A stretch of DNA of 64,000 nucleotides from Amphiscolops sp. MND2022. Lineage: Eukaryota. Location: assembly GCA_964187785.1 (NCBI GenBank), contig OZ076409.1:57352001-57416000 (forward strand), in the 5' to 3' direction. The notes under the pieces are model-generated. The model was not told where the DNA came from. It saw only the letters and a list, made by a program, of their open reading frames with translations, and made no database searches. The position numbers and the translations under genes are program-made. Each line of letters opens with the position of its first letter. Positions within the stretch are counted from its first letter, which is position 1. Positions 5,811 to 60,218 of the stretch are shown here, one piece after another.

Positions 5811-6245
5811 AAACAAGCCGGGACCGGCCAAGTCGGCACCATATCCAAGGCTCAAAAAAAGCAAAAAGACTTCCAAGTGTCAAGTATTCTCTTTTACAGT
5901 ACTCGAAAATCGAAAATTTTTCGAAAAATAAATGGACCGAGGAGTGGCGCGCCGGGGCTGGCGCGCTAAAGTCTCACAATGCCGAAAAACTGAAAGGGGG
6001 ACCCTTTGAGGTTTCTCAACATCCATTTTGTCGCAAAAACATGAAAAAATTGAAGAAAACAAAAATTTTTATTTTCGGAAAAAGTCTCAGTGCCGAAAAA
6101 AAATTGAAAGGGGGGACCCTTTGGGATTTTCCAACATCCATTCTGTCGCAAAACAGCAAAAAATTTGAAGGGGGACCCTTTGGGCAAAAAAAAAATTTTC
6201 CGGAAAAAAAGTCTCGCAGTGCCGAAAAAAATTGGAAGGGGGGAC
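5811..6245 (+). repeat. 5' part of a dispersed Helentron/HINE-like repeat split by element A (3' part at 25457-25652)
   Basis: Begins ACAAGCCGGGACCGGCCAAGTCGGC; resumes after the 3' LTR and ends GCGCCGACTAAAAA; an uninterrupted reverse-strand copy lies at 36945-37428. Confidence 0.7.
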
Positions 6246-8427
6246 TGTCATGCCAGCATGATGGAAATATAATCTACTAAATATCTGTAATGTAAATATT
6301 ATGTCTTATGTACTTAGATATGGGCAATATGAAGTCATATAATAAGAGCCATGGTTGTGAGCAACCCTACGTTACTTGTACCTTAATCCCTTCCCCCCCT
6401 GAGTGTGAGTTATATATATATATATATCTATTTAATACTGAGCGCTCTAGTTCCGGTGTCCGCATAAATGATCTTGCCATTAGCCTTAGATGTGCTACTT
6501 TTCTTAAAATATTGGTTTGTCACGACAAGGGAGAGAAGTTTTCCGGTCAGACTGGACCGCGAGATATAGAAACGATGAAAGTTATAACTTCTACTAGCTC
6601 CCCGCCTCAGAGTTTGTAGTTGTGACAAATTTCATTAAAAAACACATCACAAAATCATCGTCTAATTTAGTGATTGTTCTGATTTGATTTCATTTAAATC
6701 CATCAGCGGATTTACTGATGCTGTTAACAAAGTTCATCACAATCCAATCTCCAAGATTGCGAATGAACCACGCATGGGACAATAAACTTTACTTTTCATC
6801 ATAAATCCATCAGCGGATTTTACGGGACTCATTTTAGTAAAACTCATCACTAATTCATCGTTATATTTCATGTAGAAACTCACAAATGTGCTTCTCATTT
6901 CTTAAGGACAGTAAAACATCCTTTATTCATCGTCATACTAGCATAGAAGAGAAATGAGAAAGTACATCCTTAACCCATCCTAAAAAAGAGTGATTGCGCT
7001 GGTTATCTGATTTGTTTAGTAAATCCATCATTAATTCATCATGATTTCACCTTGTGTTGAGAATTACCATTTTAGTGGATGAGTTCATCCTAAACTCATC
7101 GCTAGTTTGAATTGCTTCGATAGTTGCTGTTTTAATTCACGAGTTCATCCTAGACTCATCACTAGTTTGAATTGCTTCGAGATTTGCTGTTTTTATTCAC
7201 GAGTTCATCTTAAATTCATCGCCAAAACTGATCTGCGCTAGAAATAGCATTTTCTGAGTGGATTCATCCTGAATTCATCGTCATTTTAATCAGTGCTGGT
7301 AATTGGCAAATTTTATGGGGAGTTCATCCTTTTATTATCGTCAGTTTATATCGTGTTGATTTTCGAGCGAAAAGACCACCATTCATCGCATTTTCATCCA
7401 GAGCTAAACTAGATTTGAAAATCAGCAAATATTCTGACAAATTCATCGCATTTCCATCTTTTGTTTTGAAGTATTGATTTTAGTGCTATAATTAGTTGGA
7501 AAACATCGTTTTCCCATCCTGTGATACGGTTTACTCTGGTTTGACTTGAAATTAGTACATTATTGAATGATTTGAGTTGCTATAGAAACCACGATGCTGC
7601 GTGCAGGTAATTGCGACATTGTAAAATGATGATTAATCATAATTAGCATATGTAGATGTACCATGTGGTTCAGCCAACTTGCGGCAGTTCACAACACCGG
7701 TCACGTGACTTACCAATTAGCACCAACTGGCAATAGCCAATAAGAGGCGGCTGGTAAGAGATTTAGCGTCTTTTCAGCCTGAAAAGACACGTGAACTGCT
7801 GTAAATTGGACCGCCATTAAACATTACTCAGACAGAAAATACATCTCTATTTCATCACTGAAAACTGCAAAATCGCAAGCTAACTACTCTCTCGGTACAT
7901 CTGCAACTGCGATGAAAATTGGATGAACTTTCCTACTCATCTTACTAATTTCCTGCTACTTTCCTGACGACTTGTTTATTTGTACTAATCATCGATAAAA
8001 CATCTCTGTTCAAATTTAGTGAATTGGAGATCATAAATTTAGACAAAACAGCAAAATACATCGAAATAACATCTCAGGTAATCCAGTCTTTACTCATAAT
8101 CCTTTTCTCCCATCTCTATGAACTCAGATCAAGGCACTGAACTCAGGAGCGGAAGAATTATTAGTTCCTCGTTAGAAACACCCGTTCCAACCGATCCAGA
8201 CATGGCCCAGTCGTCCGCCAATGACTCCGACAACAATGAAACTTCAGATATCTCGTCCCAGTTGTCTGAAATAAGAGAGAGTTATGAAAGAAAGATAAAC
8301 GAACTACAAAATGAGTTTAGCCAACTGAAGGACTTAATGATGGCTGTCATAAGTAAGACAGACAGTGAAAATCGACCATCAACTTCGAAAGGTCCTTCAA
8401 AGCTGGCCCACACGGTTGGGCTCGACA
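6246..8427 (+). repeat. 5' LTR of element A (2182 bp)
   Basis: TGTCATGCC...GGCTCGACA; direct repeat of 23229-25456; followed immediately by the PBS. Confidence 0.97.
7081..7520 (+). repeat. Degenerate ~59-60-bp tandem array with conserved CATC-N7-CATC core inside the LTR
   Basis: About 8 consecutive units starting e.g. GAGTTCATCCTAAACTCATC, GAGTTCATCCTAGACTCATC, GAGTTCATCTTAAATTCATC, ATTCATCGCATTTTCATC. Confidence 0.85.
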
Positions 8428-9626
8428 TGGTGACAGGAGTTACAGAAACCCGCTCCACCCGCCCGACATCCAGCTTCACAAACTTCAGGCGATACCAAGA
8501 AGACGACTCGGACGAAGAAGGTGAATCAACTCCTAGAAGCAATGAGGAACGACTACTCAATGCAATCGAGACGATCCCCCAACGAATCAAAAGCACCACC
8601 ACCAACACGAAATTACTACAGACACACGTCCCAAATTTCAGATGCCAAAAAGACAAATTCGTGGAATTCGAGCACCTTCTCCTCAACCACCTTAGCCCGC
8701 TCGCCAACAAAATCACCGAAGAGAGCAAACTCCACTTCTTTCAAAGCCTTTTGAGAGATGATGCAATAGAGTACTGGCAATCCATCCAGATAACACCACT
8801 AACAACGCTGAAAGATGTGCTCGACCTCTTCAGGAAAGAATTCGCGAAAGAGGATCTTAAAGAAGTAGCTCGATACAAATGGGATCAAGCCCGTTACGAT
8901 CCCACCACAGAAACATTCAGCGACTTCCTCAAAAACTTGAAAAAGATTGCGAAACAAGCATTTGGGGAAGAAGCGGACAAAATCATCAAGATGTTCTTGT
9001 TCGGCAAACTCCCAGTCGAAATACAACAAGAACTTACGATGGCCAATAAGGAGGAGAGCTCACCAGAAGAAATCAAGACATACTTGATGAGAAAGTACCA
9101 GTACCAGCAGTACGTCGCGCCACCTACGGCAATCCAACCATTCAACGCGGTCACCTCCTCAGCCCCAGCAACGATTACAACGACGAAGCCCACAACAACA
9201 ACGACGACAACACAACCGACAGAACGAAAACGATTTGAGGGACAATGCTTCTACTGCGGAAAGACAGGTCACCGCAAAACAGAATGCCGCGCCCGACAAC
9301 GTGACGAAGCAAACGGCATTAAGAAAGAAGATGCAATTCCGATGAAGAAAGCAGCAGACCCAGACAAACCGAAATACAATCCGAAGTTGGTCTGTCAGAT
9401 TTGTGGATACACGGGCCACTCAGCCAGAGATTGCAGACGACGCGTTCCCAAGGAAAGCAGCTCTGCATATGGAAAGATTTCATACACAACGAATTCACAG
9501 GACGACAACAAGGCTAGACGACAAGATTTAAAACGACAGCAAAAGCCGATGAATCCAATACAAGCAATTACTGAAGACGACGAACAACTAAGCTACTCTG
9601 ATGAAGACATTAACCAGGGTTTTTGA
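8118..9626 (+). CDS. gag: Gag (502 aa) with two CCHC zinc knuckles; first ~103 codons lie inside the 5' LTR
   Basis: CFYCGKTGHRKTEC and CQICGYTGHSARDC; retrotransposon-gag-like core (KLHFFQSLLRDDAIEYW); position upstream of pol. Confidence 0.95.
   Translation: MNSDQGTELRSGRIISSSLETPVPTDPDMAQSSANDSDNNETSDISSQLSEIRESYERKINELQNEFSQLKDLMMAVISKTDSENRPSTSKGPSKLAHTVGLDMVTGVTETRSTRPTSSFTNFRRYQEDDSDEEGESTPRSNEERLLNAIETIPQRIKSTTTNTKLLQTHVPNFRCQKDKFVEFEHLLLNHLSPLANKITEESKLHFFQSLLRDDAIEYWQSIQITPLTTLKDVLDLFRKEFAKEDLKEVARYKWDQARYDPTTETFSDFLKNLKKIAKQAFGEEADKIIKMFLFGKLPVEIQQELTMANKEESSPEEIKTYLMRKYQYQQYVAPPTAIQPFNAVTSSAPATITTTKPTTTTTTTQPTERKRFEGQCFYCGKTGHRKTECRARQRDEANGIKKEDAIPMKKAADPDKPKYNPKLVCQICGYTGHSARDCRRRVPKESSSAYGKISYTTNSQDDNKARRQDLKRQQKPMNPIQAITEDDEQLSYSDEDINQGF
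8428..8439 (+). other. Primer-binding site TGGTGACAGGAG (tRNA-Leu-like)
   Basis: Starts with TGG directly after the LTR CA end; identical 12-mer after the LTR of element B (53815-53826); one mismatch to the familiar tRNA-Leu PBS TGGTGTCAGGAG. tRNA identity is inferred. Confidence 0.85.
9617..9623 (+). other. Predicted -1 ribosomal frameshift slippery site G GGT TTT at the gag/pol junction
   Basis: X XXY YYZ heptamer directly before the gag TGA; pol is in the -1 frame. Confidence 0.8.
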
Positions 9627-12600
9627 TTCAGCCACGATTTCCGCCCGCTACAAATGACACGCGCGACAACCGACTAACGACTCAACAACCGACTCACAAC
9701 CGTCCAATGAAGAAATGGCAGCCTTCACAGGACAAACGACCGAAAGCTGATGATGTCTATCAGCGAAGAATTTTCAACGATAAAAAAGCGATGGGAAATG
9801 CACGTCAACTCAACGGCAGCCGCTTTTCTCCACTCGCTGAAATCAACGATGAACAAACGATGAACTGGCAACCAGACACCATGAGGCAGGTGGAAGATGC
9901 CAAAGAGATGGAAACCAACCATCTAGACGACGACTCAACTTCACACTCAACTATCGACCAACGGCTTAGTATTAAAAAACATGCAAAACAGAGTAGTATT
10001 AAAGTTTCAAAAGCTAAAAAACATGCAACTAAAACAGAAATTCACGTTCTCAGTCCCACTTTACACTTAAACAAGAAAGATAAAATGCTTTACGTCCCTC
10101 TTCAGTTTGACAAATATGAAAACAGCGCACTTTTAGATACAGGCGCAATTCAAAGTGCAATGTCTGAAGCAGAATTGCGAAAAATAACAACGGCTCATCC
10201 AGAAGCCATCCTTCAAGAACTCCCCCCTCCGAATTTCAAAATTCAAATAGCAAACGGGAACTTAGTCCCAGTACGTAAGCAAGTCTTACTTAGATTTTAC
10301 GTTGCTGGAAAAGTCTTTGAAGAAACGTTCCTAATCCTTCCAACAATGGGCACAATTTTAATTGGAATGTCCTTCTTTGAAAAGTACTCAGTCAATTTAG
10401 ACATAAAAAACCACCTTGTCCACTTCCCTAATCACATGATGTCCATGCAAGTTAGACAGCAAAAGAACAACAGATTCAAAACTGGTTTAATTGATTGGTG
10501 TTCCAGTACCAGAACAGTGATCCCTCCTCTCCATCAAGTGATGATACAGGTCCACAGCGACGCGGACATCTCACTTACAACTGGTACAGTTGAGGGCTCA
10601 CCTGGATTCATGCGAAAGACGTGTTTGCTTGTTTCCCCAGCTTTGGTTGACCTAGACGAGGGCAAGACGACAACCCAGGTCACCAACCCGAACAACCACA
10701 CGTTCACATTTGATGCCAACACCACTCTGGCACACTTTCGCATACCGACACCACATCAGGCGGCAAACATCACACCCATGCCAGTCGAACACTTGAACCT
10801 GATCACCAAGTACCCAGATGAGGCGGAAGCAGTGATCAACCAACTGTTCGTGAACCCTAAAATGAAGTCAACTAAGTGGTACCCAACTCCCGAGACGTGC
10901 AGTGAGCCAGACAAACTCAACGCAATTGAGCGACGAATCTATGATGAGATTCTGGCACTACGAGAGCTCGAGAAGCTTGACCCGTCCCAATCCGATGAAC
11001 AACGGATGAACTTCCTGAAGAACTTCAACTGGGACGACTCGCTTCTTACTCGGTCTCAACGGTTACAGGTAGAGGAGTTGCTGGTAAAGTTCAACTCCAT
11101 TTTTGCTAGACATCGTTTTGATATCGGCATGAACACTGATTTTATAGTTAAGCTAACACCCCAACATGAAGAACCTGTTTATTCACAAAGTCTCCCTACT
11201 CCGACAAATTTGAAGGACGATTTGCTCGTGGAGTTAGCTTTAATGCAAGAGTACGGGATCATAACTACTTTGCCTCATAGCGAATACTCATCTCCGATAT
11301 TTGCTCAACGTAAACCAAATGGTAAATTGAGGATTTTAGTTGACTTGAGAAGAATAAACCACTTGATCAAAAACGATTACGGTGAACACAACCATCCCTT
11401 AACAACAATTGCTGATGCTGCCCAACACATGGCCGGGAAAAAGTATTTCTGTAAACTTGATTGTTCCCAGGCCTACCATTGCATTCCAATGGCCGATGAG
11501 CAGTCTGTCCAACTGTTATCGTTTAATTTTGGTTCTAGAACTTTTGCCTTTTTACGCCTGGCCCAAGGTCTTAACCGTTCATTGTCAGCATTCACAAGTG
11601 TAGTCCGTGAGTATTTGGACCCCTTGGTCAAAGCGGACCGATGTGCTCAATATGTTGATGACATTGGAATTGCAGCACACACCCCTGACGAACTGATTAA
11701 TAACCTTGAACTTGTTTTTCAGCAGCTGAACAAAGCCGGTCTTAAACTTAGCATGAGTAAATGTGAATTTGGACAAAAGCAATATGAGTACTTGGGAAAA
11801 ACCATTTCTAGCACCGGTATTGCTCCCATTGAGAAACGAGTAACTGACTATCTGACCAAATTGAAACCCCCCAACTCAGTGAAAGCATTGCAACGTTATC
11901 TTGGTTTTGTAAACTTTTACAGGTCTTATATTCCCCGACTAGCTGATAAAACTTGTTGTTTACAGGAATTGATCAAGAAGGACGTCCCTTTCAAACTGAA
12001 TCAACAACATAAAGACGCTATTTTTGAAATCAATGAAAGTTTGTTAAAAGCAACAAAAGTGTCTCCGAAATTGCCATTACCTGATAAACAATTGGTAATC
12101 ATGTGTGACGCCAGCGAACACGCTGCCGGCTATGTTTTGTTAATTGAGGACTATGCTGACCCGTCAGTCAAACAAACATACGCCCCTGTTGCATTTGGCT
12201 CTAAGAAATTTCAGGGCGGCCAGATGTCTCTAACAATGTATGCCAAAGAGTTTTTAGCTATGCACTTTGCCTTCGATGAATTTGGCCACATTCTGTGGGG
12301 TGCGAAAAAACCCATCAATGTTATGACTGACAATAAGGCCTTGACTAGATTTTTTCAGGCGAAGCATACCCCGCCTTCACTTTGGAATTTTTGCGATCAA
12401 ACCCTTCAGTTCAATTTTTTATTAGCACATGTTCCAGGAGTTGAAAATCCCGCAGCGGATTACTTATCTCGGCTTGAGATTAGACCTGAAGACCGTGTAC
12501 ATTTAAAATTGACTGATACTATTCCAATTCACAGGATCGAGATCGACATCGCCTCCCGTACACCAAAACAGGAGGAAGACGAGCCTGATTACTTTCCCGC

Positions 12601-14803
12601 GAGTGAACCACTCAGATGCAAACGCCAGAAGGATGTCAAAGAGATGAAATTGGCAACTGGCACTGACGTGGCTCATGACGATGGGAAAGGGATGAAGTTC
12701 ACCAACTGTGAGAGAACAGCGGCCTCAGATGACTTCGCCACTGACAACCATCTGACGTACCGCCTCACAGACGTGGACGAGCCGATTCAACTCTCGCAAT
12801 TCATCCGTAAAGTATCATTATCACGCCCGGTAATGAGTCAGGTTAGCCCCGCTGAGGGGATCGATCTAATTCAGGTCCAGAAAAATAACTGGGTTATTCA
12901 AAAAATGATTAGATTTTTAGAAGGTACTGAAATTTTGCAACACCCAGTTAATATGCAAGATCAGTTTTTTCAAAAGTTGCACAAAAATCGAAAACGCCTA
13001 CAAGTTGTAAACGGTGTCTTGTACAGACAGTTTTTTGATCACACGGGACTGGAGTCTCACAAGCAGTTAGTTGTTCCTGAAGACTGTATTTTGAAAATAA
13101 TTAGGACTCTACATAACAGCCCGGTACAAGGACACCCTGGTTTAAAGAAAATGTTGTATGAACTTCGTAAAAGATATTACTCTCCTAACTTAGCCTGTAA
13201 AGTTCAAAAAGTCCTTGACGGATGTGAAAACTGCATGAAGTCTAAAAGTGTAAAAGAAACGCAACTACGTCCACCGTTACAAAAAATCTACGACCCGTGC
13301 GACGGACCAGAAGACCTGTTGGAAATAGACATCGTTGGTCCACTCCCGGCGTCGAACGGTTTTACACACATTCTGACGGCTGTTGACGTTTTTTCACGCT
13401 ACCTGTTCGCCGTTCCGCTGAAGAGACCTGATACACATTCCGTAGTCAGAGGATTACTGTCGATCTTCACGAAACACGCGTATGTGCCCAAGCACATTCT
13501 GACGGACAAGGGCACGGCGTTCACGGCTGAACTTCTGTCTGAAATCGCGAAAGCGGCTGATATTCACATCTCCCATGCCACGATAAAGCACGCACAGACA
13601 ATAGGCATGGTGGAGAGAACGCACGCGAAACTGAAAAAGATCCTTAAAATTAGTGTAAACGCAGACCGACCACAATGGGACCGCTATGTCGACATAGCAA
13701 TCATGGCCCATAACACAACGTATCATGATTCACTGAAATGTTCACCAACTGAAATTTTCCACGGAAGAACACCATACAACACACTAGATCTGCAATTCCG
13801 AAACGCAAACAAACCGGCTGAAAAAAAGTGCAAGGACGTGAACGAAATTCTAGACAAAATGAACTTCATCTTTAGAGACAATCTAGATAACATCATTTCC
13901 GCCTATCATAAGTACAAAACGTACTATGATAGAAAAGCACGAGCACAGCCACTGAAGGTGAATGAATTTGTGTTCCTACTAGATCCTAAGTACGACTCTC
14001 AGAGAAGCAAAGAAGAGTTTAAAACTTTCCATTGGAAAGGACCGTACAAGGTGATTAAAGTGCTATCCGATAGCAACTACATCATCCGCAAAGTAGGCAC
14101 ACACCAAACTCAGTGCGTACACAGAATGCGACTGAGGTTGTTCAAACCGGAATTTCCGATTGATGACATCAACGTGTCCAAACATCTCTACCCAGACACT
14201 GAAAGGGTTGAAGACACGGACATTTTCGACTCGAATATTCCGACGACCGACGAAGTAGATCAGAATGAGAATGACAATCTAGATCAAGACTTAGTCGAAG
14301 AAGAGCCTTCAGAAGAAATAATTCCGCAGGTACAAGAACGACACAGTCCACAAGTAATTCCTCCAGAAATAACCACGAGAATAGATTATCAGCAAGTAGA
14401 AACTGACCACAACAACTTTAGACCACCTACAGTTAGATTTGGAACACAAGAGGAAATTATTCTACCGCCCCCCCGCGATGAAAGTAGGATAAGAGTACCT
14501 CTGAGAGACGAACAACACGAAAATCAGTCACAACAGACAAACACGCAAAGTGAAGATGAGGAAAGGATGAGTTCTAGACCTTCTAGAAACAATCGAAGTA
14601 GGTACAGGTTACGCGAAAACCCTACACCGAAAAAATATCCTGACTTCCTTATTCATGAGATTACAACAGCCAGAAACTCTCTGAGAAAGACCAACAAAGT
14701 AAACGTAACGAGTTGGCCAAGAAAAACAACATTTCAAAACACACGATGTGTTAAAGATGAACAATTCACAAAAACGAGTCAATTACATGCAATTTCCATT
14801 TAA
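9623..14803 (+). CDS. pol: Pol polyprotein (protease, RT, RNase H, integrase), uninterrupted 1726 codons
   Basis: LDTGA protease; YVDD RT; CDAS..AAG, KEFLA, TDN RNase H; H-H-C-C, IDIVG/TDKG/GMVER DDE integrase; WKGPY motif. Confidence 0.97.
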   Translation: MIQPRFPPATNDTRDNRLTTQQPTHNRPMKKWQPSQDKRPKADDVYQRRIFNDKKAMGNARQLNGSRFSPLAEINDEQTMNWQPDTMRQVEDAKEMETNHLDDDSTSHSTIDQRLSIKKHAKQSSIKVSKAKKHATKTEIHVLSPTLHLNKKDKMLYVPLQFDKYENSALLDTGAIQSAMSEAELRKITTAHPEAILQELPPPNFKIQIANGNLVPVRKQVLLRFYVAGKVFEETFLILPTMGTILIGMSFFEKYSVNLDIKNHLVHFPNHMMSMQVRQQKNNRFKTGLIDWCSSTRTVIPPLHQVMIQVHSDADISLTTGTVEGSPGFMRKTCLLVSPALVDLDEGKTTTQVTNPNNHTFTFDANTTLAHFRIPTPHQAANITPMPVEHLNLITKYPDEAEAVINQLFVNPKMKSTKWYPTPETCSEPDKLNAIERRIYDEILALRELEKLDPSQSDEQRMNFLKNFNWDDSLLTRSQRLQVEELLVKFNSIFARHRFDIGMNTDFIVKLTPQHEEPVYSQSLPTPTNLKDDLLVELALMQEYGIITTLPHSEYSSPIFAQRKPNGKLRILVDLRRINHLIKNDYGEHNHPLTTIADAAQHMAGKKYFCKLDCSQAYHCIPMADEQSVQLLSFNFGSRTFAFLRLAQGLNRSLSAFTSVVREYLDPLVKADRCAQYVDDIGIAAHTPDELINNLELVFQQLNKAGLKLSMSKCEFGQKQYEYLGKTISSTGIAPIEKRVTDYLTKLKPPNSVKALQRYLGFVNFYRSYIPRLADKTCCLQELIKKDVPFKLNQQHKDAIFEINESLLKATKVSPKLPLPDKQLVIMCDASEHAAGYVLLIEDYADPSVKQTYAPVAFGSKKFQGGQMSLTMYAKEFLAMHFAFDEFGHILWGAKKPINVMTDNKALTRFFQAKHTPPSLWNFCDQTLQFNFLLAHVPGVENPAADYLSRLEIRPEDRVHLKLTDTIPIHRIEIDIASRTPKQEEDEPDYFPASEPLRCKRQKDVKEMKLATGTDVAHDDGKGMKFTNCERTAASDDFATDNHLTYRLTDVDEPIQLSQFIRKVSLSRPVMSQVSPAEGIDLIQVQKNNWVIQKMIRFLEGTEILQHPVNMQDQFFQKLHKNRKRLQVVNGVLYRQFFDHTGLESHKQLVVPEDCILKIIRTLHNSPVQGHPGLKKMLYELRKRYYSPNLACKVQKVLDGCENCMKSKSVKETQLRPPLQKIYDPCDGPEDLLEIDIVGPLPASNGFTHILTAVDVFSRYLFAVPLKRPDTHSVVRGLLSIFTKHAYVPKHILTDKGTAFTAELLSEIAKAADIHISHATIKHAQTIGMVERTHAKLKKILKISVNADRPQWDRYVDIAIMAHNTTYHDSLKCSPTEIFHGRTPYNTLDLQFRNANKPAEKKCKDVNEILDKMNFIFRDNLDNIISAYHKYKTYYDRKARAQPLKVNEFVFLLDPKYDSQRSKEEFKTFHWKGPYKVIKVLSDSNYIIRKVGTHQTQCVHRMRLRLFKPEFPIDDINVSKHLYPDTERVEDTDIFDSNIPTTDEVDQNENDNLDQDLVEEEPSEEIIPQVQERHSPQVIPPEITTRIDYQQVETDHNNFRPPTVRFGTQEEIILPPPRDESRIRVPLRDEQHENQSQQTNTQSEDEERMSSRPSRNNRSRYRLRENPTPKKYPDFLIHEITTARNSLRKTNKVNVTSWPRKTTFQNTRCVKDEQFTKTSQLHAISI

Positions 14804-15410
14804 AATGAACATGAAGATGTAAAATGGATGAAAAGGTACTAAAAATCACATGAAAAACGCATAAAAACAAAACACGATGTAAAACTGATGAAAAACGACC
14901 AAAAAACCAGAAAAAACAACACACAAAAATTTGAGATGAAAAAAGGATGAAATCACATGAAAATTTAGCTCATACACACGAGAGATGAAAAAGTGATGAA
15001 CTCAGTCAAAAATTCAACCAATCAACATGCAATATTTACTAACGATGCATTTGAGATGGAAAATACCATCAGAATGCGAACGCACTCACGTTCATGCTAT
15101 CATAAGACTCGAGCTCGGCTAGAGGATGAAATAGCGATGAACTCGATCCAATTATTCATAAATTACATGAAATCAATTAACGAGATGAATTTGTGATGGA
15201 CACTACCATCAAATCGTGACCGAATTTATCGTTAACCTGACACAATACTCTAGCTTCGCTGGAGGATGTCAAAACGATGAATTTAGTCTAAATGGATATT
15301 CGAAAATATTAAATGACTTACCAAAACCTCCTTGTGATGGGAAACACCATCAACATAACATCACAATAAATCAGCTAATTCTCAAACAACATGTAACTCC
15401 ACGAAACGAT
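14745..15410 (+). repeat. GATG-N7-GATG motif array just downstream of pol
   Basis: GATGTAAAATGGATG, GATGTAAAACTGATG, GATGAAAAAAGGATG, GATGAAATAGCGATG and others at roughly 50-70-bp spacing. Confidence 0.8.
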
Positions 15411-16669
15411 AAAAAACAACCGACTTTATTTCGAATCATGCAAACAGAATTATGCGACACAAAAATGAAATGATCAATACATGTAAAGTTCAAAGACCTG
15501 CCAAATCAATGACGTCACGAAAGAAATTAACAATTCCAAACTACATGCAATACAAATGAGCAACGCACGGAAATATACATGTACCGTTTAAAAATGAATG
15601 AGATAATATATGCAATTCACACCAAAGCCATCCAAACCTAGACGAATAAAAATGAAACAAACAATCGAAAATACATGAAGCCTACTAACTTACATGCAAA
15701 ATATAAAAACTGACGAAACACCCACAAAACGAATAAAGGAGTGAGCACCCCCCAGTAAACATCAGTTCATAACAAGCAAAATACCCCTACCGAAAAGCCA
15801 AAAACATTCCTTCGTGCTGGCTGGCATTTCTCTGAAAAGAGTGCTGGTTAGTTGAGGCGGGGAGCTCACAACCATATTCGGATGAAGCTTGCTGCGTTGG
15901 TTATCCAGCGGCTAGTGGATTCTCAGTTAGTTTTGTAGGGGCTTTGTGACGACAAAGCCCTGTCCAAATGAACGAAAATAAAAACACCAAATTAAAATAC
16001 ATGAAACTAACACCGGACATAAAACAACATGTCGATAATGGGGCAACCCATTTAAAGGAATACATTATGAAAACACGCAAACATGAAACCACACAATATC
16101 ACAAAACTTAATAATTCGAAACATGCAAAGCCGTAGATGTCAATCACCTTGATTGATCAGATTAAATGTCAAATGGACAAACCCATTTTGACATCTGATG
16201 ACAAACAACCGACCGTAAAAATAACATGAAGACTATATATAGCTCAAAACTGAGAGATTTCATTCATCTGAATGGAGCGGAGCAGCTCCACTTACCCAGC
16301 TTTGGATTGGTACCTCAAGTACCTTGCACGCCTACGGGGTTCCAATACCTTTGCTGAGTGAACATCTCTTCGACTGCCACGCAAGCGGCAGTCACAAGAG
16401 TACGAAAAATGATTCATGCAATAAGGTTCAAACTATGACAAATCCGAAACGCAACGAAAATGAGTATAACACATGCACACTAAATTTCATGCAATTTCGA
16501 CAACCTAACAAACGATCAACACCATATGACACTCAAATACATGAAGAAAACACTCCCAAAATACCGCAAAATTGATAAAATACACTCATCTACTATGAAA
16601 AATGCAACTCTCGATCACGTTATAGTAAAATAAACACGAAAAACACGCAAGATAAATATTTTTCCAAAA

Positions 16670-17050
16670 TTACGATGAAAAGAAGATGAACTATGCAGTA
16701 AAATGAGTAAAATTCGACAAGTCAAAACTTGCGATGCAAAAACGATGAACTACAGCAAATAACTCGCCAAAATGATAAAATGCAGGACGAAAAAACGATG
16801 ATATATGTAGAAAAACCACATGAAACAACATGCAGTGATTCGCATATAATTAACGATGTAAAAAAGATGAGAAAACAGTTTTCGCAACGTCGCTCGGCCG
16901 ACTGAGGGAAACGTGACGAAGGTGAGATGAAAAATCCAAACGAAACGCTGTTCAAATTAACTACACTCCCACGAGATGTAATAACGATGATTACCGCAAA
17001 AAGACTAGCTGAGAATTGTGACAACACGCAAAAACGATGTGAAAACGATG
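16670..17050 (+). repeat. GATG-N7-GATG motif array
   Basis: GATGAAAAGAAGATG, GATGCAAAAACGATG, GATGTAAAAAAGATG, GATGTAATAACGATG, GATGTGAAAACGATG at ~60-bp spacing. Confidence 0.8.
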
Positions 17051-17360
17051 CTAATTGGAATTTGGAACTCTGAATGACGAGACCTAACAGCAGAAACTAA
17101 TGATCCGCAAACCTAACCTGCCTACGACCTCAATCACTAACTAGTATCTCAAGAGCAAAACAATTCGAGTGCCACATCATTTAACTTGTAAATACAAGCT
17201 ACCGAACTTTCCGACGTAGCCTTTTAATTTTCCCCCCTCCCAGTATTCTCATTTCTCTTGGCAACCCATTTATGATAACAAAACTACTAACTATAATATA
17301 AAATCAAGCAAAGCAATACAAAAGTTTCAAACAACGGAGTTTACAGTTGGATCTCAAACA

Positions 17361-20300
17361 TTAATTGCCGATCTCCGGACTGGCAGCTCGTTCCCCACTA
17401 AGCGTGTATCCTAGCTCCGCATACAATTGGAGACGATAATCTTCTCCGGCCACAATTCCGATGTCGTCCCACAACATACCCTCGTCCAGCTCCGCCAAAT
17501 TGACCAATCATCGATGTGACTCAGTCACTTCCTCTAACAAAGGGCCGCTCACACTGTCATAATTTTGGATATGATTAGCAGACAAATAGGCCAAAATCAC
17601 AGCACACACACAACTCGTGACATCGCTACTTAACTGCCCAAATCCATCGCAACAAAGACTGCTTCTGCTCTGAACTCCTCCATCTAGGCATAAAACACTG
17701 CGAAGCAGATTCTGAGCGCCACAACTAGAGCAATGGCGAAGAAGATCGATGACAGAACAACCCTCTGTACGTCCTGCTAGTCCCGAGTCACGTCGGAAAT
17801 TGGCAAGGAAATCCAGAAAGCCACGTTCCATCCGACCCTGCTCCGCACGGGTGATCCGACCCAGATCCACAAGCATATCAGTGAAAATCCTGATCTCGTC
17901 TAATAGGACGTCCTCTGCAACAAAACTCAGACAGGGCATACTGAAAACACTGCGCACAAACGACAGATCGTCTCGCACACCCGGCAGATTAATAACAGTC
18001 TTCACAACGGTTAGAATGAAAACCGGAACAAGTGACAAATCCTCTTCATAGAGAGCGGCATTCGAGCCTTGATCGTCCACACAACGAAATCCGTCCAGCA
18101 ACACCTGATGTTTCACTTCTGAGATTTCATAGCTTTCCACATTCAGAAAGAGCCATCCACGAATGTCCAATTCCGATGGTAGCCTTTCTTCATCTACTAG
18201 CATCATCATCAGTGACTTCACAAAGGCAGCACTCTCAATTGCCCAGTAGCACGCGCGCAACGTCGAAGACCCAAAACTCTTCTCGTAGGAGCTGATCACT
18301 GAAAAACACGAATCACAATTATCACAAGAAACAACCAGGTTTAACATTACACCCACAACCGTATAGCTTCCAACTCGATCTCAACAAAAAACCAAAACCC
18401 CCCCGTAACTTACAGAACTAAAGTATTACTAACAAGCACGGTACACAAGACCAAGAACAAGGAGTCTAATCGGAATGCCGATCTCAGCACGTAGTGTCAA
18501 GTCTAAGGCATCCAAAGGCCCTTCACCACTAGCGAAGCGTAGCAAGCATAAGATGTCAGACCAGTTCGTCCGTAACTCCTCGCACACATCGGCCAGGGTC
18601 CAAATGTACACCTCGCCGGTAAGAATCGCCTAAAATGTAAATAATACCATCCCAATCAATTCGATAAAATCAAACAATTACATCACGCCTACACACCTGC
18701 ACAACACTAAAATTATTACATCAACCAATTCTCTAATATACTACGTACTTGCAAAAGTTGAGGGCATCCTAGCAACAGAGGATCTTTCACGTATCCTTTG
18801 AGACGTTTCTGTAAATGGTTCAGTACCACGTGAATGTCTGTACCCCCCAGCACTGATCCGGCCACATCCACAATTGCCCGACTGACATCTGACAGACCCA
18901 GAGATTTCACGTCCAATGATCCGACTCCTGTGCTGCTTCGAAAGAGCCCACCCAGCTGCGGCAACTCATCGCAACACAGTCCAAGTGGGACTGGCTCACC
19001 GAGCATACAGCACCACATGTTCACTAGCCATGTGATTACCCTGCTTTCCCAGTCTCGAGCCACACTGAAGCTAAACACACAGTAGTGCTTGACCCCGTCT
19101 AACAAACACACTGTAACAGTCCCTGTCACGCGCCCTCCCACAACTGACAAATGGAAGCTACTGTAAGTGCTATCGGTCCAGACAGTGATCAGTCGCCGCA
19201 TCACGTACGGCCACAGCCCTAATACGATCACGCTCTAAAACAAAAACACTGTGAATAAAACATAAAAATAGCATCCACCCTACCCCCCACCCACTACTAA
19301 AACTAGAACAACACATAATGGCCAAAAGTATGACTAAAAAACATACGAGTAGACGCTTACCATGACATCTTTCAATCCACATTGCGCCCCAAACAAGACC
19401 GCATGTTGGGGATCGGAAGCCACCAACACTTCCCACAGGTTCGTGACACTGGCAAACTGACAATCCCGATATAGGGCGTCCACAACAAAGCAAATAAACA
19501 GACGAACAGTTCGCTCTGGCCAGTCTTCCCCTTCCTCTTCGTCGCCCCACACAGGTCGTCCAGCACCCTCCAACTCGAAAACTTCCACCACATTAAGTGA
19601 TGGACAGGTCTCTATGAAAGGCACGGACACCCCCTCCAGGTTCACACGGCATTCTGCACTTTCGTCGCTTGTCATGAGAGTTCCATCACGTCGCCGCAAC
19701 GGTAGCCCTCGGTGCAGCCGTACCACACAATCCAGCCAATGATGGCCTAGGCCTCGGCAGTGCTCCATAAAGGTGGTAATGCCTCGGCTGCCCACCTTAA
19801 CATCTCTCTTACACATTAGACATCGCACATACGACATGCGCGACTCGTGATTGCGTGCATATCCTAGCGCCAGCCCGCAGTATGGATGATCAAACCATCC
19901 AGACTTAATCACTTTCTTTCCTGATAATCACAACCACACAATATAGCAAAAGTAATACCATTACAAACCATCATAGACAACGACTAAAATCATCTGTTAC
20001 ACATCAGAAAAATCGAAAAATGCAAAAGTCACAAGTAAAAACCACAAAAGTTCACCCGGAGTGATGAAAACACGATGTAAAATAATATTTTCATCGGGAA
20101 ATATAAGCGAAAAACGAAGAAAAAACGAAAAGATGAAAAAGAGATGTGTTTGCAGACCACCAGAATGAAAATTGAAACTTTTAAAGGCGAAAAACTCGAA
20201 CGATGAAAAAGAGATGTATAGAACGACTTTGAACCAAAATTGAGATATTTTAGAGCGAAAACAACTTAACGATGAAAAAGGGATGTAAACTGAAAAGAAA

Positions 20301-22049
20301 ACACTGAAAAATAGCCAAAACGAAAAGAAAAATTTTAAGGATGTAAAAGAGATGAAAAGTGGCTAAAATAGCTAGAATGCAAGGCAAAAGAGAAAAAACG
20401 CCATGTTCGAAAACTTTTAACGATGAGAAAATGATGAAAAACACAACATGCAAAACTGAACAGTGAAAAGAGCTAAAACGATGGAAAATAGATAAAAAAG
20501 GAGAAAAACGCGAAAAATACTAGTGGAAGCGGAAATGAAAAGAGTAAAAACGGAAGGTTACTGATCAAATACTTCACAGGTTTCAAAGCTGTTTAGGTAA
20601 CCTGGTAGATGAGACGCGATTGGCTCATCATCGGAGTCATTGAGGCTGGGCCCCAACGGTGAGGTCTCTCCTAATACAGTATCTGGTGCAGGAACAACGT
20701 CGCCAGGATCAGGACCTACAGACGGAGAACCACTGAAGGAGAAGTCCTCGGGAATCTCAACCCCTGTCTCAGTGCTACTGGCCGAGGGAAGATCGGGCTG
20801 GTCAACGACTGGCTCCACCACCGAAAGGACGTCAGCGATCAACGAGGAAGCAACGGGAGGCGACTCGACAGGAGGATCGTGCACGGTGGAGGAATCACTG
20901 GTCTCCACAACAGCTTGCACTGCTACGTCAGCAGAATTGCACACTGTATTGATGGCCACATCCACTTGCTGCACCTCATCCCTCGTTGAGGTACCATGGC
21001 ACACAGTCACCCGAGAAGGAGGAGGACTTCTGGCAGCGAATTCACAATCCAAGTATCTCTGGAAGTTGGGCGACAACACGGAGACTGGAGCCCTTGCGAC
21101 CGGAGAACTGGTTGAGAGATCCTGTAAGAAGGAAGACAGCTCAAGCTGAGGAGGCCCTCCTTGGGTACTGACGTCGACGCTGTCATTGCCGAAGTCACTG
21201 GTCCCAATCGCAATGGAGTAAGTGATGGGACGCGGTCTCGGGGCATGGATAGGCGTTGGACCTGAAAGAAAGAAACAATTACTGGACGACGATGATTGGA
21301 GAAGAAAGAGCGCGTACGCCGCGCGAAGAAAGAAGACCGGAGAAGAATTCATCCAAAACTCATCTTCAAAAATGGGATTTACAGCGAGTCAGTCATGAAG
21401 AGCTGTGAATGTTCATGACACATCCTTAATTCATCTTAAAAATGAATTACATGGATAATCGACCATAAAGGGCACTACATGCAGATGAGATGTGTACATC
21501 GGAATTACATCGGAGTGTCAGGACGATAGCCTAGTACAAGGAAGAAAGTTGTAGAGGAGTTAACTCACTATACTGCAGGATACTCTCTCGCAGCATGTCT
21601 CGCATGTGGCGGTCATACCACCCAAAGGTGACGCTGCCAAGAGAGGCATACCAAGGGTAGTGATCTAAACATCAAACGGAAAGAGTCAGTGTTTGAATGG
21701 ATCGGAGATGAGAAACGAAGAGATTGCAGACTGAACATGATGATCTGAGAGGATGGAACTTACACTGCGGAAGGTACGGGACATTAGGGACCTGCTCAAA
21801 TTGTTGCTCAGGTTGAATCTGAGCTGCTGGAACTGCTGCTTGCACTTCAGGAGCCTGTTGAGGCGAAACGGTCTGGAGCGTGGTCAGGTCGGAGATGACC
21901 CCAACAGAATGGACTGAGTCCGCTAAAGCAAAACGTGCTTTCAGTACCTAATTGTTCCCTAACCCGTTTGTGACGAAAAGAAAAATAGTGCACTTACTTT
22001 CTGTGGCCTCGGTCTCAGGTAATGAATGAACTGAGTGAATCTCTGACAT
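17361..22049 (-). CDS. Antisense spliced accessory gene of element A (~1048 aa): low-complexity N-terminus, BED-like zinc finger, hAT-transposase-like body; one in-frame TGA at 17508-17510
   Basis: Exons 21998-22049, 21764-21922, 21569-21664, 20602-21261, 19361-19920, 18749-19234, 18434-18629, 17361-18298; all GT-AG with matching phases (1,1,1,1,0,0,1), total 3147 nt. Finger CLMC-X16-H-X5-H. The donor at 20601 is the least certain. hAT assignment is by eye. Confidence 0.8.
20060..20495 (+). repeat. GATG-N7-GATG motif array inside an intron of the antisense gene
   Basis: GATGAAAACACGATG, GATGAAAAAGAGATG (twice), GATGAAAAAGGGATG, GATGTAAAAGAGATG, GATGAGAAAATGATG at ~60-70-bp spacing. Confidence 0.8.
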
Positions 22050-23228
22050 TTTGAATGTGAACGAGAATTGCAAGCAACAATCTGAAAAGAATGGAAGAAG
22101 GTGAAAGAAGGAAAGAAATCGACGAATCCAGGAACAGAGAATTTGATCAGTAATTAAATGGCCTGATCAACCATGATTACGGAAGAGCAAATTCAATAGA
22201 AGATTTCAAAGAGCGCGACGCAGCTTGAATGCCATGTTAATCAAATACTTGAAGTCAGAAGATGAAAAATCGATGAACAACTCTCCGATTTCAAATACTG
22301 ACATCACTTTTCTTCTTAGTACAACCAACTCAAGCTTTCTCTGAAAATGGATCGTCCTCTCCTAGGACTTGACAAAAAACGTCAAGTATTTGATTTGTTG
22401 ACAGCTGCCAGTCTCAGATCAATACCGACGAAGTTGAGCGGAAACGCGCAAAGGAAATCGTGGCGATTTTCAAACCGACTTGAATGGAGGATGATTTATG
22501 GATGAGAATGCTGCTGACAACCGGTTGTAATTTCCTTCAGTTATAAATTCAGTCTCAGCCAATCAGATCGAGCAACAATTGCTATGGCGACGAATTCATC
22601 TCTTTCTCATCGCTCAAAAGTCGAGCAGCGGAAGTAACTTTTGACAGTTGCTATGACGACGATTCATCTTCTTTCCATCGCGAGTAAACAAAGCAGCGGC
22701 GCCAGCCGTTCCGCTAAACCAGCATCGATGTCTCGCTGAGCAAACAATTCATCGTTCATTCATCCCGAGAATTTGGATTTAGACGAATGGCGGCGACAAC
22801 TCACTGCGAATTTGTCAATGAAGATGCCTTGAATGTTTACTCAGCGTAGGCGGCCTGGGGGAAAACTTTTCTCCAGGAAATCGAGATTTCTACCGAAATA
22901 ATCAACAAACCGAGCTCCCGTCAAAAGCATGACGACCAATAAAATGCAGATCAGCGGACATTCGATGGGCCAAGAATTAGAGTTGCCGCGTCGAAAATTT
23001 TAACCGAAATCACCCAGGATGATGCCAGAAAATGACGATTACCGAAGGTCCTCTTCTCAGAGAAGCTCTCACAGGACAGAACAAACGAAGGAAATGCCAA
23101 CTCAAGAACAAGCGAAGGATCAATTTTCTCCCTAACCAAACGAAGGAAACAGTCGAAGCCAACGCCGAGACAACCATCCTCTGCACATTTGGCCCCTGCA
23201 CTCTCAGTCCAAATCCCACCCCCGGGAG

Positions 23229-25456
23229 TGTCATGCCAGCATGATGGAAATATAATCTACTAAATATCTGTAATGTAAATATTATGTCTTATGTACTTAG
23301 ATATGGGCAATATGAAGTCATATAATAAGAGCCATGGTTGTGAGCGACCCTACGTTACTTGTACCTTAATCCCTTCCCCCCCCTGAGTGTGAGTTATATA
23401 TATATCTACTTAATACTGAGCGCTCTAGTTCCGGTGTCCGCATAAATGATCTTGCCATTAGCCTTAGATGTGCTACTTTTCTTAAAATATTGGTTTGTCA
23501 CGACAAGGGAGAGAAGTTTTCCGGTCAGACTGGACCGCGAGATATAGAAACGATGAAAGTTATAACTTCTACTAGCTCCCCGCCTCAGAGTTTGTAGTTG
23601 TGACAAATTTCATCAAAAAACACATCACAAATTCATCGTCCAATTTAGTGATGGTTCTGATTTGATTTCATTTAAATCCATCAGCGGATTTACTGATGCT
23701 GTTAACAAAGTTCATCACAATCCCATCTCCAAGATTGCGAATGAACCACGCATGGGACAATAAACTTTACTTTTCATCATAAATCCATCAGCGGATTTTA
23801 CGGGACTCATTTTAGTAAAACTCATCACTAATTCATCGTTATATTTCATGTAGGAACTCACAAATGTGCTTCTCATTTCTTAAGGACAGTAAAACATCCT
23901 TTATTCATCGTCATACTAGCATAGAAGAGAAATGAGAAAGTACATCCTTAACCCATCCTAAAAAAGAGTGATTGCGCTGGTTATCTGATTTGTTTAGTAA
24001 ATCCATCATTAATTCATCATGATTTCACCTTGTAATGAGAATTACCATTTTAGTGGATGAGTTCATCCTAAACTCATCGCTAGTTTGAATTGCTTCGATA
24101 GTTGCTGTTTTAATTCACGAGTTCATCCTAGACTCATCACTAGTTTGAATTGCTTCGAGATTTGCTGTTTTTATTCACGAGTTCATCTTAAATTCATCGC
24201 CAAAACTGATCTGCGCTAGAAATAGCATTTTCTGAGTGGATTCATCCTGAATTCATCGTCATTTTAATCAGTGCTGGAAATTGGCAAATTTTATGGGGAG
24301 TTCATCCTTTTATCATCGTCAGTTTATGTCGTGTTGATTTTCGAGCGAAAAGACCACCATTCATCGCATTTTCATCCAGAGCTAAACTAGACTTGAAAAT
24401 CAGCAAATATTCTGACAAATTCATCGCATTTCCATCTTTAGTTTTGAAGTATTGATTTTAGTGCTAGAATTAGTTGGAAAACATCGTTTTCCCATCCTGT
24501 GATACGGTTTACTCTGGTTTGACTTGAAATTAGTACATTATTGAATGATTTGAGTTGCTATAGAAACCATGATGCTGCGTGCAGGTAATTGCGACATTGT
24601 AAAACGATGATTAATCATAATTAGCATATGTAGATGTACCATGTGGTTCAGCCAACTTGCGGCAGTTCACAACACCGGTCACGTGACTTACCAATTAGCA
24701 CCAACTGGCAATAGCCAATAAGAGGCGGCTGGTAAGAGATTTAGCGTCTTACCAGCCTGAAAAGACACGTGAACTGCTGTAAATTGGACCGCCATTAAAC
24801 ATTACTCAGACCGAATTGCGATTAGCTACCATCCAGTAGGATACTTAACGTCGAATTTCACCAGAAAATACATCTCTATTTCATCACTGAAAACTGCAAA
24901 ATCGCAAGCTAACTACTCTCTCGGTACATCTGCAACTGCGATGAAAATTGGATGAACTTTCCTATTCATCTTACTAATTTCCTGCTACTTTCCTGACGAC
25001 TTGTTTATTTGTACTAATCATCGATAAAACATCTCTGTTCAAATTTAGTGAATTGGAGATCATAAATTTAGACAAAACAGCAAAATACATCGAAATAACA
25101 TCTCAGGTAATCCAGTCTTCACTCAAAATCCTTTTCTCCCATCTCTATGAACTCAGATCAAGGCACTGAACTCAGAAGCGGAAGAATTATTAGTTCCTCG
25201 TTAGAAACACCCGTTCCAACCGATCCAGACATGGCCCAGTCGTCCGGCAATGACTCCGACAACAATGAAACTTCAGATATCTCGTCCCAGTTGTCTGAAA
25301 TAAGAGAGAGTTATGAAAGAAAGATAAACGAACTACAAAATGAGTTTAGCCAACTGAAGGACTTAATGATGGCTGTCATAAGTAAGACAGACAGTGAAAA
25401 TCGACCATCAACTTCGAAAGGTCCTTCAAAGCCGACCCACACGGTTGGGCTCGACA
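23229..25456 (+). repeat. 3' LTR of element A (2228 bp)
   Basis: Direct repeat of 6246-8427 with scattered SNPs, a shorter (TA)n tract and an extra 51 bp at 24812-24862; followed by TSD GGGAC. Confidence 0.97.
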
Positions 25457-51932: not shown

Positions 51933-52162
51933 AGTTTTTGATTAAATGATTGAAAACAAAATTCTAGACTTGTTTCCTGTTTTGGCTGTTAAAAGGGGAC
52001 ACTGGTTCCGATATTTCCGGCGTCTTCGAAGCGTTTACATTTGGTTGGTGTATATATATACGTATTCATTTCAATTTCTTGGTGTAGATTGAGAGCTCAA
52101 GGTTGTCACACAAGCGTCCTCTGCAGTTTCTCTACTGTTTTCTGTATTATTGGGTTTCAAGG

Positions 52163-60039: not shown

Positions 60040-60218
60040 TCAGATATTTGTATTACTGTCCCTTTTAGCACGAATTTTATCTGGGACTTGACTGACTGCA
60101 AGACTAATGGTACAACAGACTACATAAATAGCAAATTCAAACAATTGAAAAGAAGAAATTAAAGGTCTATTTACTCAAAGAACAGAAAGTCTATTGCACA
60201 ATTGTACATATGGCACAA

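Follow-up and report, generated by a model that had tools for sequence, protein, structure and literature searches.

A Ty3/Gypsy LTR retrotransposon of about 19 kb in Amphiscolops sp. (element A, positions 6246-25456 of the 64,000-nucleotide stretch analysed here, referred to as the window) carries 74 sites of the bipartite motif CATC-N7-CATC. Comparison among copies and relatives indicates that these sites are under selection. The element also contains a predicted spliced antisense gene between pol and the 3' LTR, whose protein has a zinc finger that looks BED/CGGBP1-like. Judging from the sequences, the element's own antisense protein probably binds the sites; whether it both binds them and has an activating or anti-silencing role is evenly balanced on the same evidence.

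Element A and its CATC-N7-CATC sites

The features of element A, apart from the antisense exons, are as follows.

6241..6245, plus strand: left target-site duplication GGGAC (right copy at 25457-25461)
6246..8427, plus strand: 5' LTR (TG...CA), with the start of the gag frame inside
6411..6431, plus strand: TA run with no motif site upstream
6645..8073, plus strand: 5' LTR array of 17 sites (16 on plus, 1 on minus), with gaps mostly of 48, 60, or 70 bp
8100..9626, plus strand: gag ORF with CCHC knuckles
9330..14569, in both ORFs: 8 sites within gag/pol (9330, 9848, 9896, 10196, 10994, 12632, 12680, 14555)
9614..14803, plus strand: pol ORF, open for 1729 aa, in the Ty3/Gypsy order protease, RT, RNase H, integrase
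14745..15362, minus strand: post-pol array of 10 sites, all but one on the minus strand
16674..17050, minus strand: second post-pol array of 5 minus-strand sites
19991..20436, minus strand: array in the intron that directly precedes the finger exon, made up of 6 minus-strand sites at intervals of about 70 bp and a single plus-strand site
21350..22764, no strand assigned: 5' portion of the antisense gene, where 8 sites are scattered (21350, 21421, 21497, 22261, 22490, 22597, 22665, 22750)
23229..25456, plus strand: 3' LTR with 19 sites

The two LTRs are 98-99% identical, and a TGG-starting sequence resembling a primer-binding site lies directly after the 5' LTR at 8428. The order of the pol domains was read from Pfam matches, in which RT, RNase H, and integrase were above the cut-off and protease was below it. 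Twenty copies were fetched, and 16 of the 17 with both ends located have a 5-bp target-site duplication. The Gypsy lineage of element A is recently mobile. The TA run is likely to be the TATA box of the LTR promoter, and the 3' LTR is likely to hold the antisense gene's promoter region as well.

Between 6640 and 25100 there are 43 plus-strand and 31 minus-strand sites, while the other 44.8 kb of the window has a single site (at 44803). Every other spacing from N0 to N24 gave 0-3 sites within element A. When the number of CATC/GATG words per 500-bp block was kept, the null gave a mean of 3.4 sites (sd 1.8, maximum 11 in 2000 rounds). N7 pairs with one mismatch showed no enrichment (27, versus 14-48 for N4-N10), and thus the motif is strict. 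A sequence-only reading of the window had described CATC arrays in the LTRs, after pol, and in an intron, and had noticed them in element A only. All the clusters it named were recovered in position and orientation, and both their restriction to element A and the preference for N7 over other spacings were borne out by the counts.

No site lies in the initial 195 bp of the LTR, which reach to the TATA-like run, the first site being at 6645, and there are also none from 17360 to 19930 (the finger through the last predicted exons). The eight gag/pol sites share one codon phase, and each is retained in 15-19 of 18-20 close copies. Tandem Repeats Finder reported just one 60-bp unit per LTR (2.4 copies, 89% matches) and units of 2-14 bp, indicating that the arrays are not tandem repeats. 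Spacings other than 60 bp were phased near 10.2 bp (R 0.59, with a rough p of 0.001 from 24 non-independent spacings).

Conservation of the sites

In 13 relatives (50 sites), the eight motif bases were 95-99% identical, whereas the spacer and flank were 69-90% identical and 95 lone CATC controls in the same footprint were 72-81% identical. Among 20 close copies, motif bases differed at 133 of 11180 positions (1.2%), compared with 7.6% for spacers and 9.0% for flanks. The spacers are unrelated to each other (54 of 55 distinct), and the proportion of flank bases in common is 32% between neighbouring units versus 28% between distant ones. CATC-N7-CATC was the top spaced word in all 20 A loci and in all 12 loci of the sister clade A2. 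In the eight A2 loci tested, none of the 23-37 sites per locus was in DNA alignable to element A, and the A2 sites are arranged as head-to-head pairs 24 bp apart.

The antisense gene and its zinc finger

The antisense gene is in the same place in all clades examined. Its predicted exons in element A are listed below, in the direction of transcription.

20558..21261, minus strand: predicted upstream exon, an acidic Ser/Pro-rich low-complexity region
19361..19920, minus strand: predicted finger exon, a C-x2-C-x16-H-x5-H zinc finger followed by a helical region
18749..19234, minus strand: predicted middle exon
18434..18629, minus strand: predicted small exon with AG/GT ends
17363..18298, minus strand: predicted last exon, an all-helical domain

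The last exon of this copy has an in-frame stop at 17508-17510 and is open in other copies; the finger exon is without stops in 17 of 20 close copies. The dN/dS ratios were 0.04-0.25 for the finger exon (9 of 28 pairs estimable), 0.06-0.42 for the middle exon (17 of 21), and 0.10-0.11 for the last exon (2 of 15), with the remaining pairs dS-saturated. By these ratios the predicted antisense protein is under purifying selection.

The finger pattern C-x2-C...H-x3-5-H/C is present and conserved. Its match to Pfam zf-BED (PF02892; E 0.081, 13.4 bits) is below the cut-off of 20.6, and its nearest Atlas clusters are CGGBP1-like and zf-BED (0.92). The finger model superposes equally well on U1/matrin-type fingers (TUT1, Z 4.8, rmsd 1.2, 45 aligned). 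Searches for named relatives covered longer proteins only, so that blanks are weak, and gave either no homologue or one unnamed family member. A search of representative proteins gave 534 matches at E<=0.001; 20 clusters were checked among the matches listed, and not one was named. No PDB sequence match had an E value under 0.2, the C-terminal exon had no usable Atlas match, and the families P0078, P0137, P0149, and P0082 had no match in the genome itself at the strict E values of 1e-55, 1e-90, 1e-70, and 1e-45, respectively.

There are weak hints from structural models that the antisense protein could be of hAT-transposase origin. In a wide fold search, Hermes (8edg) was the match that covered the C-terminal model in full (residues 1-318; Z 4.8, rmsd 9.4, 171 aligned, rank 4) and ranks second for the finger model (Foldseek E 1.6), both under the trust threshold. 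An RNase H-like fold is suspected for the middle exon from its sequence. Foldseek gave no match at E<=0.001 for the antisense-protein models, neither Pfam nor the PDB gave a sequence match for the exons searched, and the shallow C-terminal profiles of clades A and B failed to match. The alignments of the middle exon (29 sequences) and the last exon (27 sequences) had no acidic column that was invariant or nearly so; the absence of a conserved DDE triad from both rules against an active hAT transposase. Nor did the gene show the terminal inverted repeats and 8-bp duplication of its own that an active hAT transposase would have: no inverted pair of at least 60 bp, the length limit of the search, was found within element A, and the position of the gene between pol and the 3' LTR is constant across clades.

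Other clades carry other fingers and other motifs

A homologous antisense finger gene is present in every motif-bearing Gypsy clade examined in this genome. Three bipartite motifs were identified, namely CATC-N7-CATC in A and A2, GAC-N5-GTC in B, K, and F, and GCC-N6-GGC in C; those of B and C are palindromes. One member of clade B, which has the homologous finger gene and its own GAC-N5-GTC motif, is in the window and was used for comparison.

52162..64000, plus strand: comparison element B, from a second Gypsy clade, with stops and frameshifts, running on into locus L061

The pairing of clade and motif was judged by cross-clade site counts, since shuffle expectations can come out too low. 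The mean number of CATC-N7-CATC sites per 10 kb was 34.0 in A, 28.1 in A2, 0.4 in B, 1.1 in K, 0.55 in F, and 0.1 in C. For GAC-N5-GTC it was 1.4 in A, 19.1 in B, 13.3 in K, 18.95 in F, and 1.6 in C, and for GGCC-N5-CGGC it was 5.9 in C, 1.6 in K, and 0.1 in A. In clade C the motif is weak, at 3-9 sites per locus, and K loci contain some of these sites as well. As background we used 20 loci from the Pfam zf-BED matches of the genome, which have canonical BED ORFs and no accessory-gene match; in these hAT and other loci the mean was 0.5 CATC-N7-CATC sites per 10 kb. A Gypsy element without an accessory-gene match (L231 and the window start), which is a single control, had no comparable motif. 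One Gypsy element with remnants of the accessory gene (L233) had no enriched motif, and one locus with an A-like finger (L163) had just 6 sites.

The segment before the zinc-binding His is SRGITTF in A, KGAREI in B and K, KGPKEI in F, and KGTLEI in C; at least ten variants of the finger were seen overall. Clade F thus differs from B at two finger residues, yet it keeps GAC-N5-GTC (10-24 sites per locus, 20 loci), and a prediction on finger change versus motif, written beforehand, failed in this clade. A rule pairing GAC with R or K before E, and GCC with L, M, or V at that place, would be post hoc. The motif groups, three in number, track a quick tree of the finger exon (76 rows, with clade F absent and L058, L134, L163, and L170 left out for incomplete finger exons). 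Only about two changes are thus seen, shared ancestry alone would give the same match, and three motif groups are too few to tell co-evolution from ancestry.

What binds the sites and to what effect

The sequence-only reading had suggested self-recognition by the accessory protein, through anti-silencing, transactivation, or assembly of the integration complex. The recognition itself gained real though indirect support from the BED-like finger, the purifying selection on the protein, the selection on the sites, and the other motifs that accompany diverged fingers. Two of the proposed roles fared worse. CpG transitions, an indirect indicator, were not clearly raised (4.5 versus 3.9 per 1000, singletons) and showed no gradient with distance from the sites (4.3 at <100 bp, 4.4 at 100-500 bp, and 5.0 at >500 bp per 1000). 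Between LTRs they were 10.5 versus 7.8 per 1000, with biased classing, and CpG observed/expected was 0.95. A role in countering DNA methylation, as in VANC-type demethylation, is therefore unsupported. Assembly of the integration complex fits poorly because the LTR tip is site-free. Transactivation or anti-silencing at the level of chromatin is the best inference.

Selection on the sites does not identify their binder. Host transcription factors or insulator proteins, one per clade, could occupy them while the antisense protein does something else; clade F, where the finger changed and B's motif was retained, would fit this, and so would the GAC/GTC palindromes of B and B', which we take to resemble nuclear-receptor-type half-site pairs. 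We nevertheless regard a host binder as unlikely, because it would require three host factors with bipartite sites in one lineage that has a BED-like finger under purifying selection, and because the motif is near chance in the rest of the window and in the background loci. Similarly low is the probability that the antisense protein binds but is not an activator, being instead a self-repressor that limits copy number or a cDNA coat that serves entry into the nucleus, assembly of the integration complex, or the choice of target. All the evidence for binding applies equally to such roles, bound protein in gag/pol and downstream of the TATA-like run could block transcription, and hAT BED domains serve transpososome assembly (PMC10368747). 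However, the LTR tip, where integrase acts, has no sites nearby, the target duplications of the 16 copies have no sequence in common, and a pure repressor would be hard to maintain under strong purifying selection in families rich in young copies.

The two remaining alternatives are far less probable. A motif acting in RNA and read by a U1/matrin-type RNA-binding finger would suit the H-x5-H spacing and the superposition of the model on the fingers of TUT1, TUT4, and U2 snRNP (Z 3.7-4.8), but the sites are on both strands, the B and C motifs are palindromic, and phasing near 10.2 bp is as expected of double-stranded DNA; we consider it very improbable. Even less credible is that the arrays are neutral remains of tandem-repeat expansion, which the conservation footprint largely refutes. 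The 60-bp LTR unit was recently duplicated, but nearly all spacers are distinct, neighbouring units share little more flank sequence than distant ones, motif bases are conserved far above flanks, and sites persist in coding DNA and in the non-alignable DNA of clade A2.

We return to binding by the antisense protein itself. Two fingers might each read one 4-bp half-site, one helical turn apart, and neighbouring sites in steps of about 10 bp would allow cooperative coating or looping. The protein, if descended from a hAT transposase, would have lost catalysis, and its acidic disordered N-terminus could recruit activators or displace repressive chromatin. Intact copies would then switch on any copy bearing the same motif. 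A fuller history is doubtful, although conceivable: a Gypsy element may have captured a hAT transposase in antisense, so that its introns survive retrotransposition, and turned it, with catalysis lost, into a private, oligomeric factor for transcription or anti-silencing, whose finger and arrays co-diversified so that every clade has an orthogonal code for self-activation that does without DNA methylation.

Comparison with known systems

The VANC proteins of Arabidopsis VANDAL transposons, which are Mutator-like, bind family-specific motifs and cause DNA demethylation (PMC5735166). Element A shares several features with them: an accessory protein encoded by the transposon, short family-specific motifs in introns, intergenic DNA, and terminal non-coding DNA, and different motifs in related families. 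As with VANC, family-specific motifs have accumulated in the non-coding DNA of the element that encodes the protein. VANDAL motifs are, however, contiguous 8-9-mers in tandem repeats, whereas that of element A is bipartite with unrelated spacers. VANDALs are plant DNA transposons (PMC5735166), while element A is a Gypsy LTR retrotransposon with a BED-like finger and without clearly raised CpG decay. That the sites are selected cis-elements bound by a self-encoded, clade-specific, VANC-like activator or anti-silencing factor is our best reading, at about even odds.

The BED domain of Hermes reads a 4-bp word beside AT-rich DNA cooperatively, via a loop and the helix before the zinc-binding His (PMC10368747). 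Element A resembles it in its paired sites, which Hermes binds cooperatively, and in the weak colinear structural matches at both ends of the protein. The sites of Hermes are concentrated at the ends of the transposon and function in cut-and-paste transposition, while those of element A are absent from the tips and distributed across 19 kb; unlike hAT transposases, the antisense protein shows no conserved DDE residues in its alignments. TnpA of Spm and the AtMu1 transposase regulate cognate copies sequence-specifically through dense motif clusters (10.64898/2026.08.24.746577). The regulator there is a transposase or a catalytically dead derivative, but the elements are DNA transposons, and the words 'retrotransposon', 'LTR', and 'Gypsy' do not occur in the main text of that study.

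Plant Retand/Tat Gypsy elements also have a long region from pol to the 3' LTR, a conserved antisense gene predicted to be DNA-binding, and family-specific repeats (PMC11963269, PMC7264820). Their repeats are tandem arrays, and no cognate pairing of protein and motif is proposed in the accessible parts of these papers. The Retand/Tat antisense domain TRP28 (PF04195) had no match at E<=0.1 in the accessory exons scanned. The foamy-virus protein Tas is not known to have dozens of dispersed bipartite sites. Like the proposed regulator, Tas is a transactivator encoded by a retroelement and needed for its own LTR promoter (PMC8670036). It is encoded by a sense-strand retroviral gene, with no sign of relationship to the antisense protein. 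No published description of the present system was found in the literature searched, a search outside which most subscription journals and Repbase lay.

Sequence-specific self-regulation by an encoded protein has already been shown in plant DNA transposons (VANC, TnpA, AtMu1), and what antisense extra genes do in LTR retrotransposons is treated as an open question (PMC7264820, PMC11963269). Missing from those cases, and present in this lineage, is the combination of a candidate DNA-binding protein with a sharply defined candidate target that is under selection and exists in a single genome in three or more motif versions. If the proposal is true, an LTR element would have lineage-specific recognition and regulation of its own copies, and a Class I element would be run by a regulator probably borrowed from Class II. 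This could help explain the high copy numbers of these families.

Element A and its surroundings

The genome measures 1.07 Gb. In the window, the Gypsy element that bears the motif arrays (element A) is laid out as follows:

6246-25456, element A, Ty3/Gypsy LTR retrotransposon with a GGGAC target duplication
8100-9626, gag of A
9614-14803, pol of A, an open frame

The LTRs of A are about 2.2 kb each and 98-99% alike. Both LTRs were seen in 18 of 20 close copies, with LTR identities of 98.8-99.95%, and 16 of the 17 close copies with both ends located have a 5-bp target duplication, indicating that the family of A has been mobile recently.

Elsewhere in the window there are:

34845-35516, an exon (PF01699, E 3e-17) from a sodium/calcium exchanger gene of the host
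38300-38478, 39793-39931 and 46984-47113, an array of tandem 22-bp units and two long, nearly perfect hairpins with arms of 69 and 65 bp
41293-44633, a block of about 800 bp that is duplicated and has many GATC and CTTG-N-CAAG words, probably another repeat family; similar words are present in loci L162 and L212

The motif and selection on its sites

The sequence-only reading had described recurring CATC pairs spaced by N7 in A and noticed no such arrays outside it, and this holds: 6640-25100 contains 74 sites (43 on the plus and 31 on the minus strand) against 0-3 for each other spacing from N0 to N24, and the rest of the window contains 1. A null keeping local CATC density averaged 3.4 sites over 2000 rounds and never exceeded 11. 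N7 pairs with one mismatch were not enriched. The motif is real and strict. Its spacer is AT-rich, and TT is preferred directly 5' of the first half-site.

Density of CATC-N7-CATC sites in element A (per kb)
LTR before the TATA-like run: 0
Remainder of LTR: 8.6
gag/pol: 1.4
Post-pol: 5.5
Conserved exons of the antisense gene: 0
Intron preceding the finger exon: 11.2

Same-strand site spacings group at 48-49, 59-61, 69-72, and 81 bp. Those outside 58-62 bp (24 of 37 in the window) show a phase near 10.2 bp, with a rough p of 0.001 for spacings that are non-independent.

Across 13 relatives and 50 sites, identity was 95-99% at the eight motif bases, 69-90% in spacer and flank, and 72-81% at 95 lone CATC words taken as controls. 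Among the 20 close copies, mismatch rates were 1.2% in the motif, 7.6% in the spacer, and 9.0% in the flank. These comparisons indicate that the sites are under selection. Tandem expansion as the source of the arrays was largely ruled out, because 54 of 55 spacers are distinct, flank bases are shared about as little between neighbouring units (32%) as between distant ones (28%), and Tandem Repeats Finder reported one 60-bp unit of 2.4 copies per LTR.

The predicted antisense finger gene

A multi-exon gene with AG/GT boundaries is predicted on the minus strand between pol and the 3' LTR of A. Its predicted exons are low-complexity acidic, finger, middle, small, and helical last; in the window copy the last has an in-frame stop at 17508-17510. 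When the genome was searched with the finger, the best 150 of 3051 candidates were scored and were 66-100% identical. Of 64 clade-A pairs, 28 allowed an estimate of dN/dS, with values of 0.04-0.42; in the others dS was saturated.

The finger has the pattern C-x2-C-x16-H-x5-H. Pfam zf-BED scored below cut-off; in the Atlas, the neighbouring clusters (0.92) are of CGGBP1-like and zf-BED type. Foldseek gave no significant match to the AlphaFold finger model (pLDDT 57); its weak rows include Hermes transposase (rank 2), ZBED2 (rank 5), and the Hermes BED-DNA complex (rank 9), and U1/matrin-type fingers fit equally well. A fold search with the last-exon model (pLDDT 76.5) had no significant match either, and a wide search aligned its residues 1-318 to Hermes 368-609 (Z 4.8, rmsd 9.4, 171 aligned). 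Since all these matches are non-significant, a hAT origin of the protein is a lead, not a result. No conservation of a DDE triad was seen in the protein alignments.

Motifs and fingers of related clades

Element B, a second Gypsy element (window 52162-64000 and L061 1-4078), has LTRs 97.9% alike, broken frames, and many GAC-N5-GTC sites inside gag/pol. It is 56% identical to A in RT/RNase H and 40% in integrase, and carries a homologous antisense finger gene. Over the 17-kb stretch containing its 15.9 kb, GAC-N5-GTC sites number 40, and CATC-N7-CATC is absent. Further clades in this genome were reached through library proteins. Loci were hand-chosen among scored matches for subfamily spread, and thus the loci behind the counts below are neither random nor independent.

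Mean sites per 10-kb locus (CATC-N7-CATC / GAC-N5-GTC / GCC-N6-GGC)
A (20 loci): 34.0 / 1.4 / 1.4
A2 (12 loci): 28.1 / 1.1 / 0.8
A4 (2 loci): 11.5 / 2.0 / 1.0
B (17 loci): 0.4 / 19.1 / 0.9
B' (2 loci): 0.5 / 19.5 / 2.5; also 18.5 GTC-N5-GAC
K (18 loci): 1.1 / 13.3 / 3.7
F (20 loci): 0.55 / 18.95 / 1.0
C (8 loci): 0.1 / 1.6 / 7.5
Background (20 loci): 0.5 / 1.9 / 1.7

In sub-clade B' (L067, L070), GAC-N5-GTC is chained with GTC-N5-GAC (18-19 per locus), and therefore clusters hold more half-sites than in other B elements. A2 (L131-L142) has head-to-head pairs, GATG-N7-GATG-N9-CATC-N7-CATC, with an 81-bp period; its LTR start, which has no sites, is still alignable to A at 77-81%. A clade-C-type GGCC-N5-CGGC cluster at window 50380-50670 is probably an LTR piece of a clade C element adjoining B.

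A2 has the finger helix of A, but identity drops to about 20-36% in its middle and last exons. In the 8 loci compared, the DNA that holds the A2 sites never aligned with A, so both motif and helix have outlasted the replacement of the sequence around them. K has the helix and motif of B at about 30% gag identity, and both differ in C. Counting against recognition of the motif by the finger, an advance prediction that clade F (finger segment KGPKEI) would differ from B in motif failed, as F keeps GAC-N5-GTC. The three motif groups track the finger tree, and so few independent changes do not suffice to prove co-evolution of finger and motif.

Two further loci also speak against such recognition: L163 has few sites, and a Gypsy copy at L233 2600-8900 retains decayed accessory-gene remnants but shows no enriched spaced motif. 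A different Gypsy (L231 6571-10000 and window 1-4951; RNase H 26% identical to A) has LTRs of about 1.2 kb with internal repeats, and neither an accessory-gene match nor a comparable motif was found there. L050 and L060 are 82-84% A-like in upstream exons and non-coding DNA, with about 40% protein identity to the window element in later accessory exons; such mosaics suggest recombination between subfamilies. More distant finger variants with different helix residues (library proteins P0131, P0137, P0146, P0149, P0013) were not found in the genome at strict thresholds, where searched.

Possible mechanism

Hermes BED fingers cooperatively read a 4-bp word next to AT-rich DNA, through the loop and helix preceding the His (PMC10368747). 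The clades here differ in the segment matching this loop and helix. Two fingers would bind the two half-sites on the same helix face, and oligomer binding would account for the larger spacing patterns, namely the 10-bp steps of A and the head-to-head pairs of A2. The antisense protein would act in trans on copies of its own clade, sustaining their transcription. Its antisense orientation would keep introns through retrotransposition; the survival of introns in antisense genes is established logic of LTR replication.

As rivals to this reading, a host factor may bind the sites, the antisense protein may be a self-repressor or a cDNA coat, or it may bind RNA. If the protein opposes silencing, this is probably not CpG methylation, because CpG observed/expected is 0.95 inside A and 0.90 outside and CpG transitions are not clearly raised.

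The working mode proposed for A is similar to the self-regulation of VANC, TnpA, and AtMu1 (PMC5735166; 10.64898/2026.08.24.746577), and its layout is similar to that of plant Retand elements with antisense TRP28 genes (PMC11963269, PMC7264820). A belongs to neither kind, nor is it an active hAT element. Literature searches, covering few subscription journals, listed no account of such a system. The clade-specific, selected cis-element system is real, and the conserved antisense finger protein is a candidate reader of these cis-elements.
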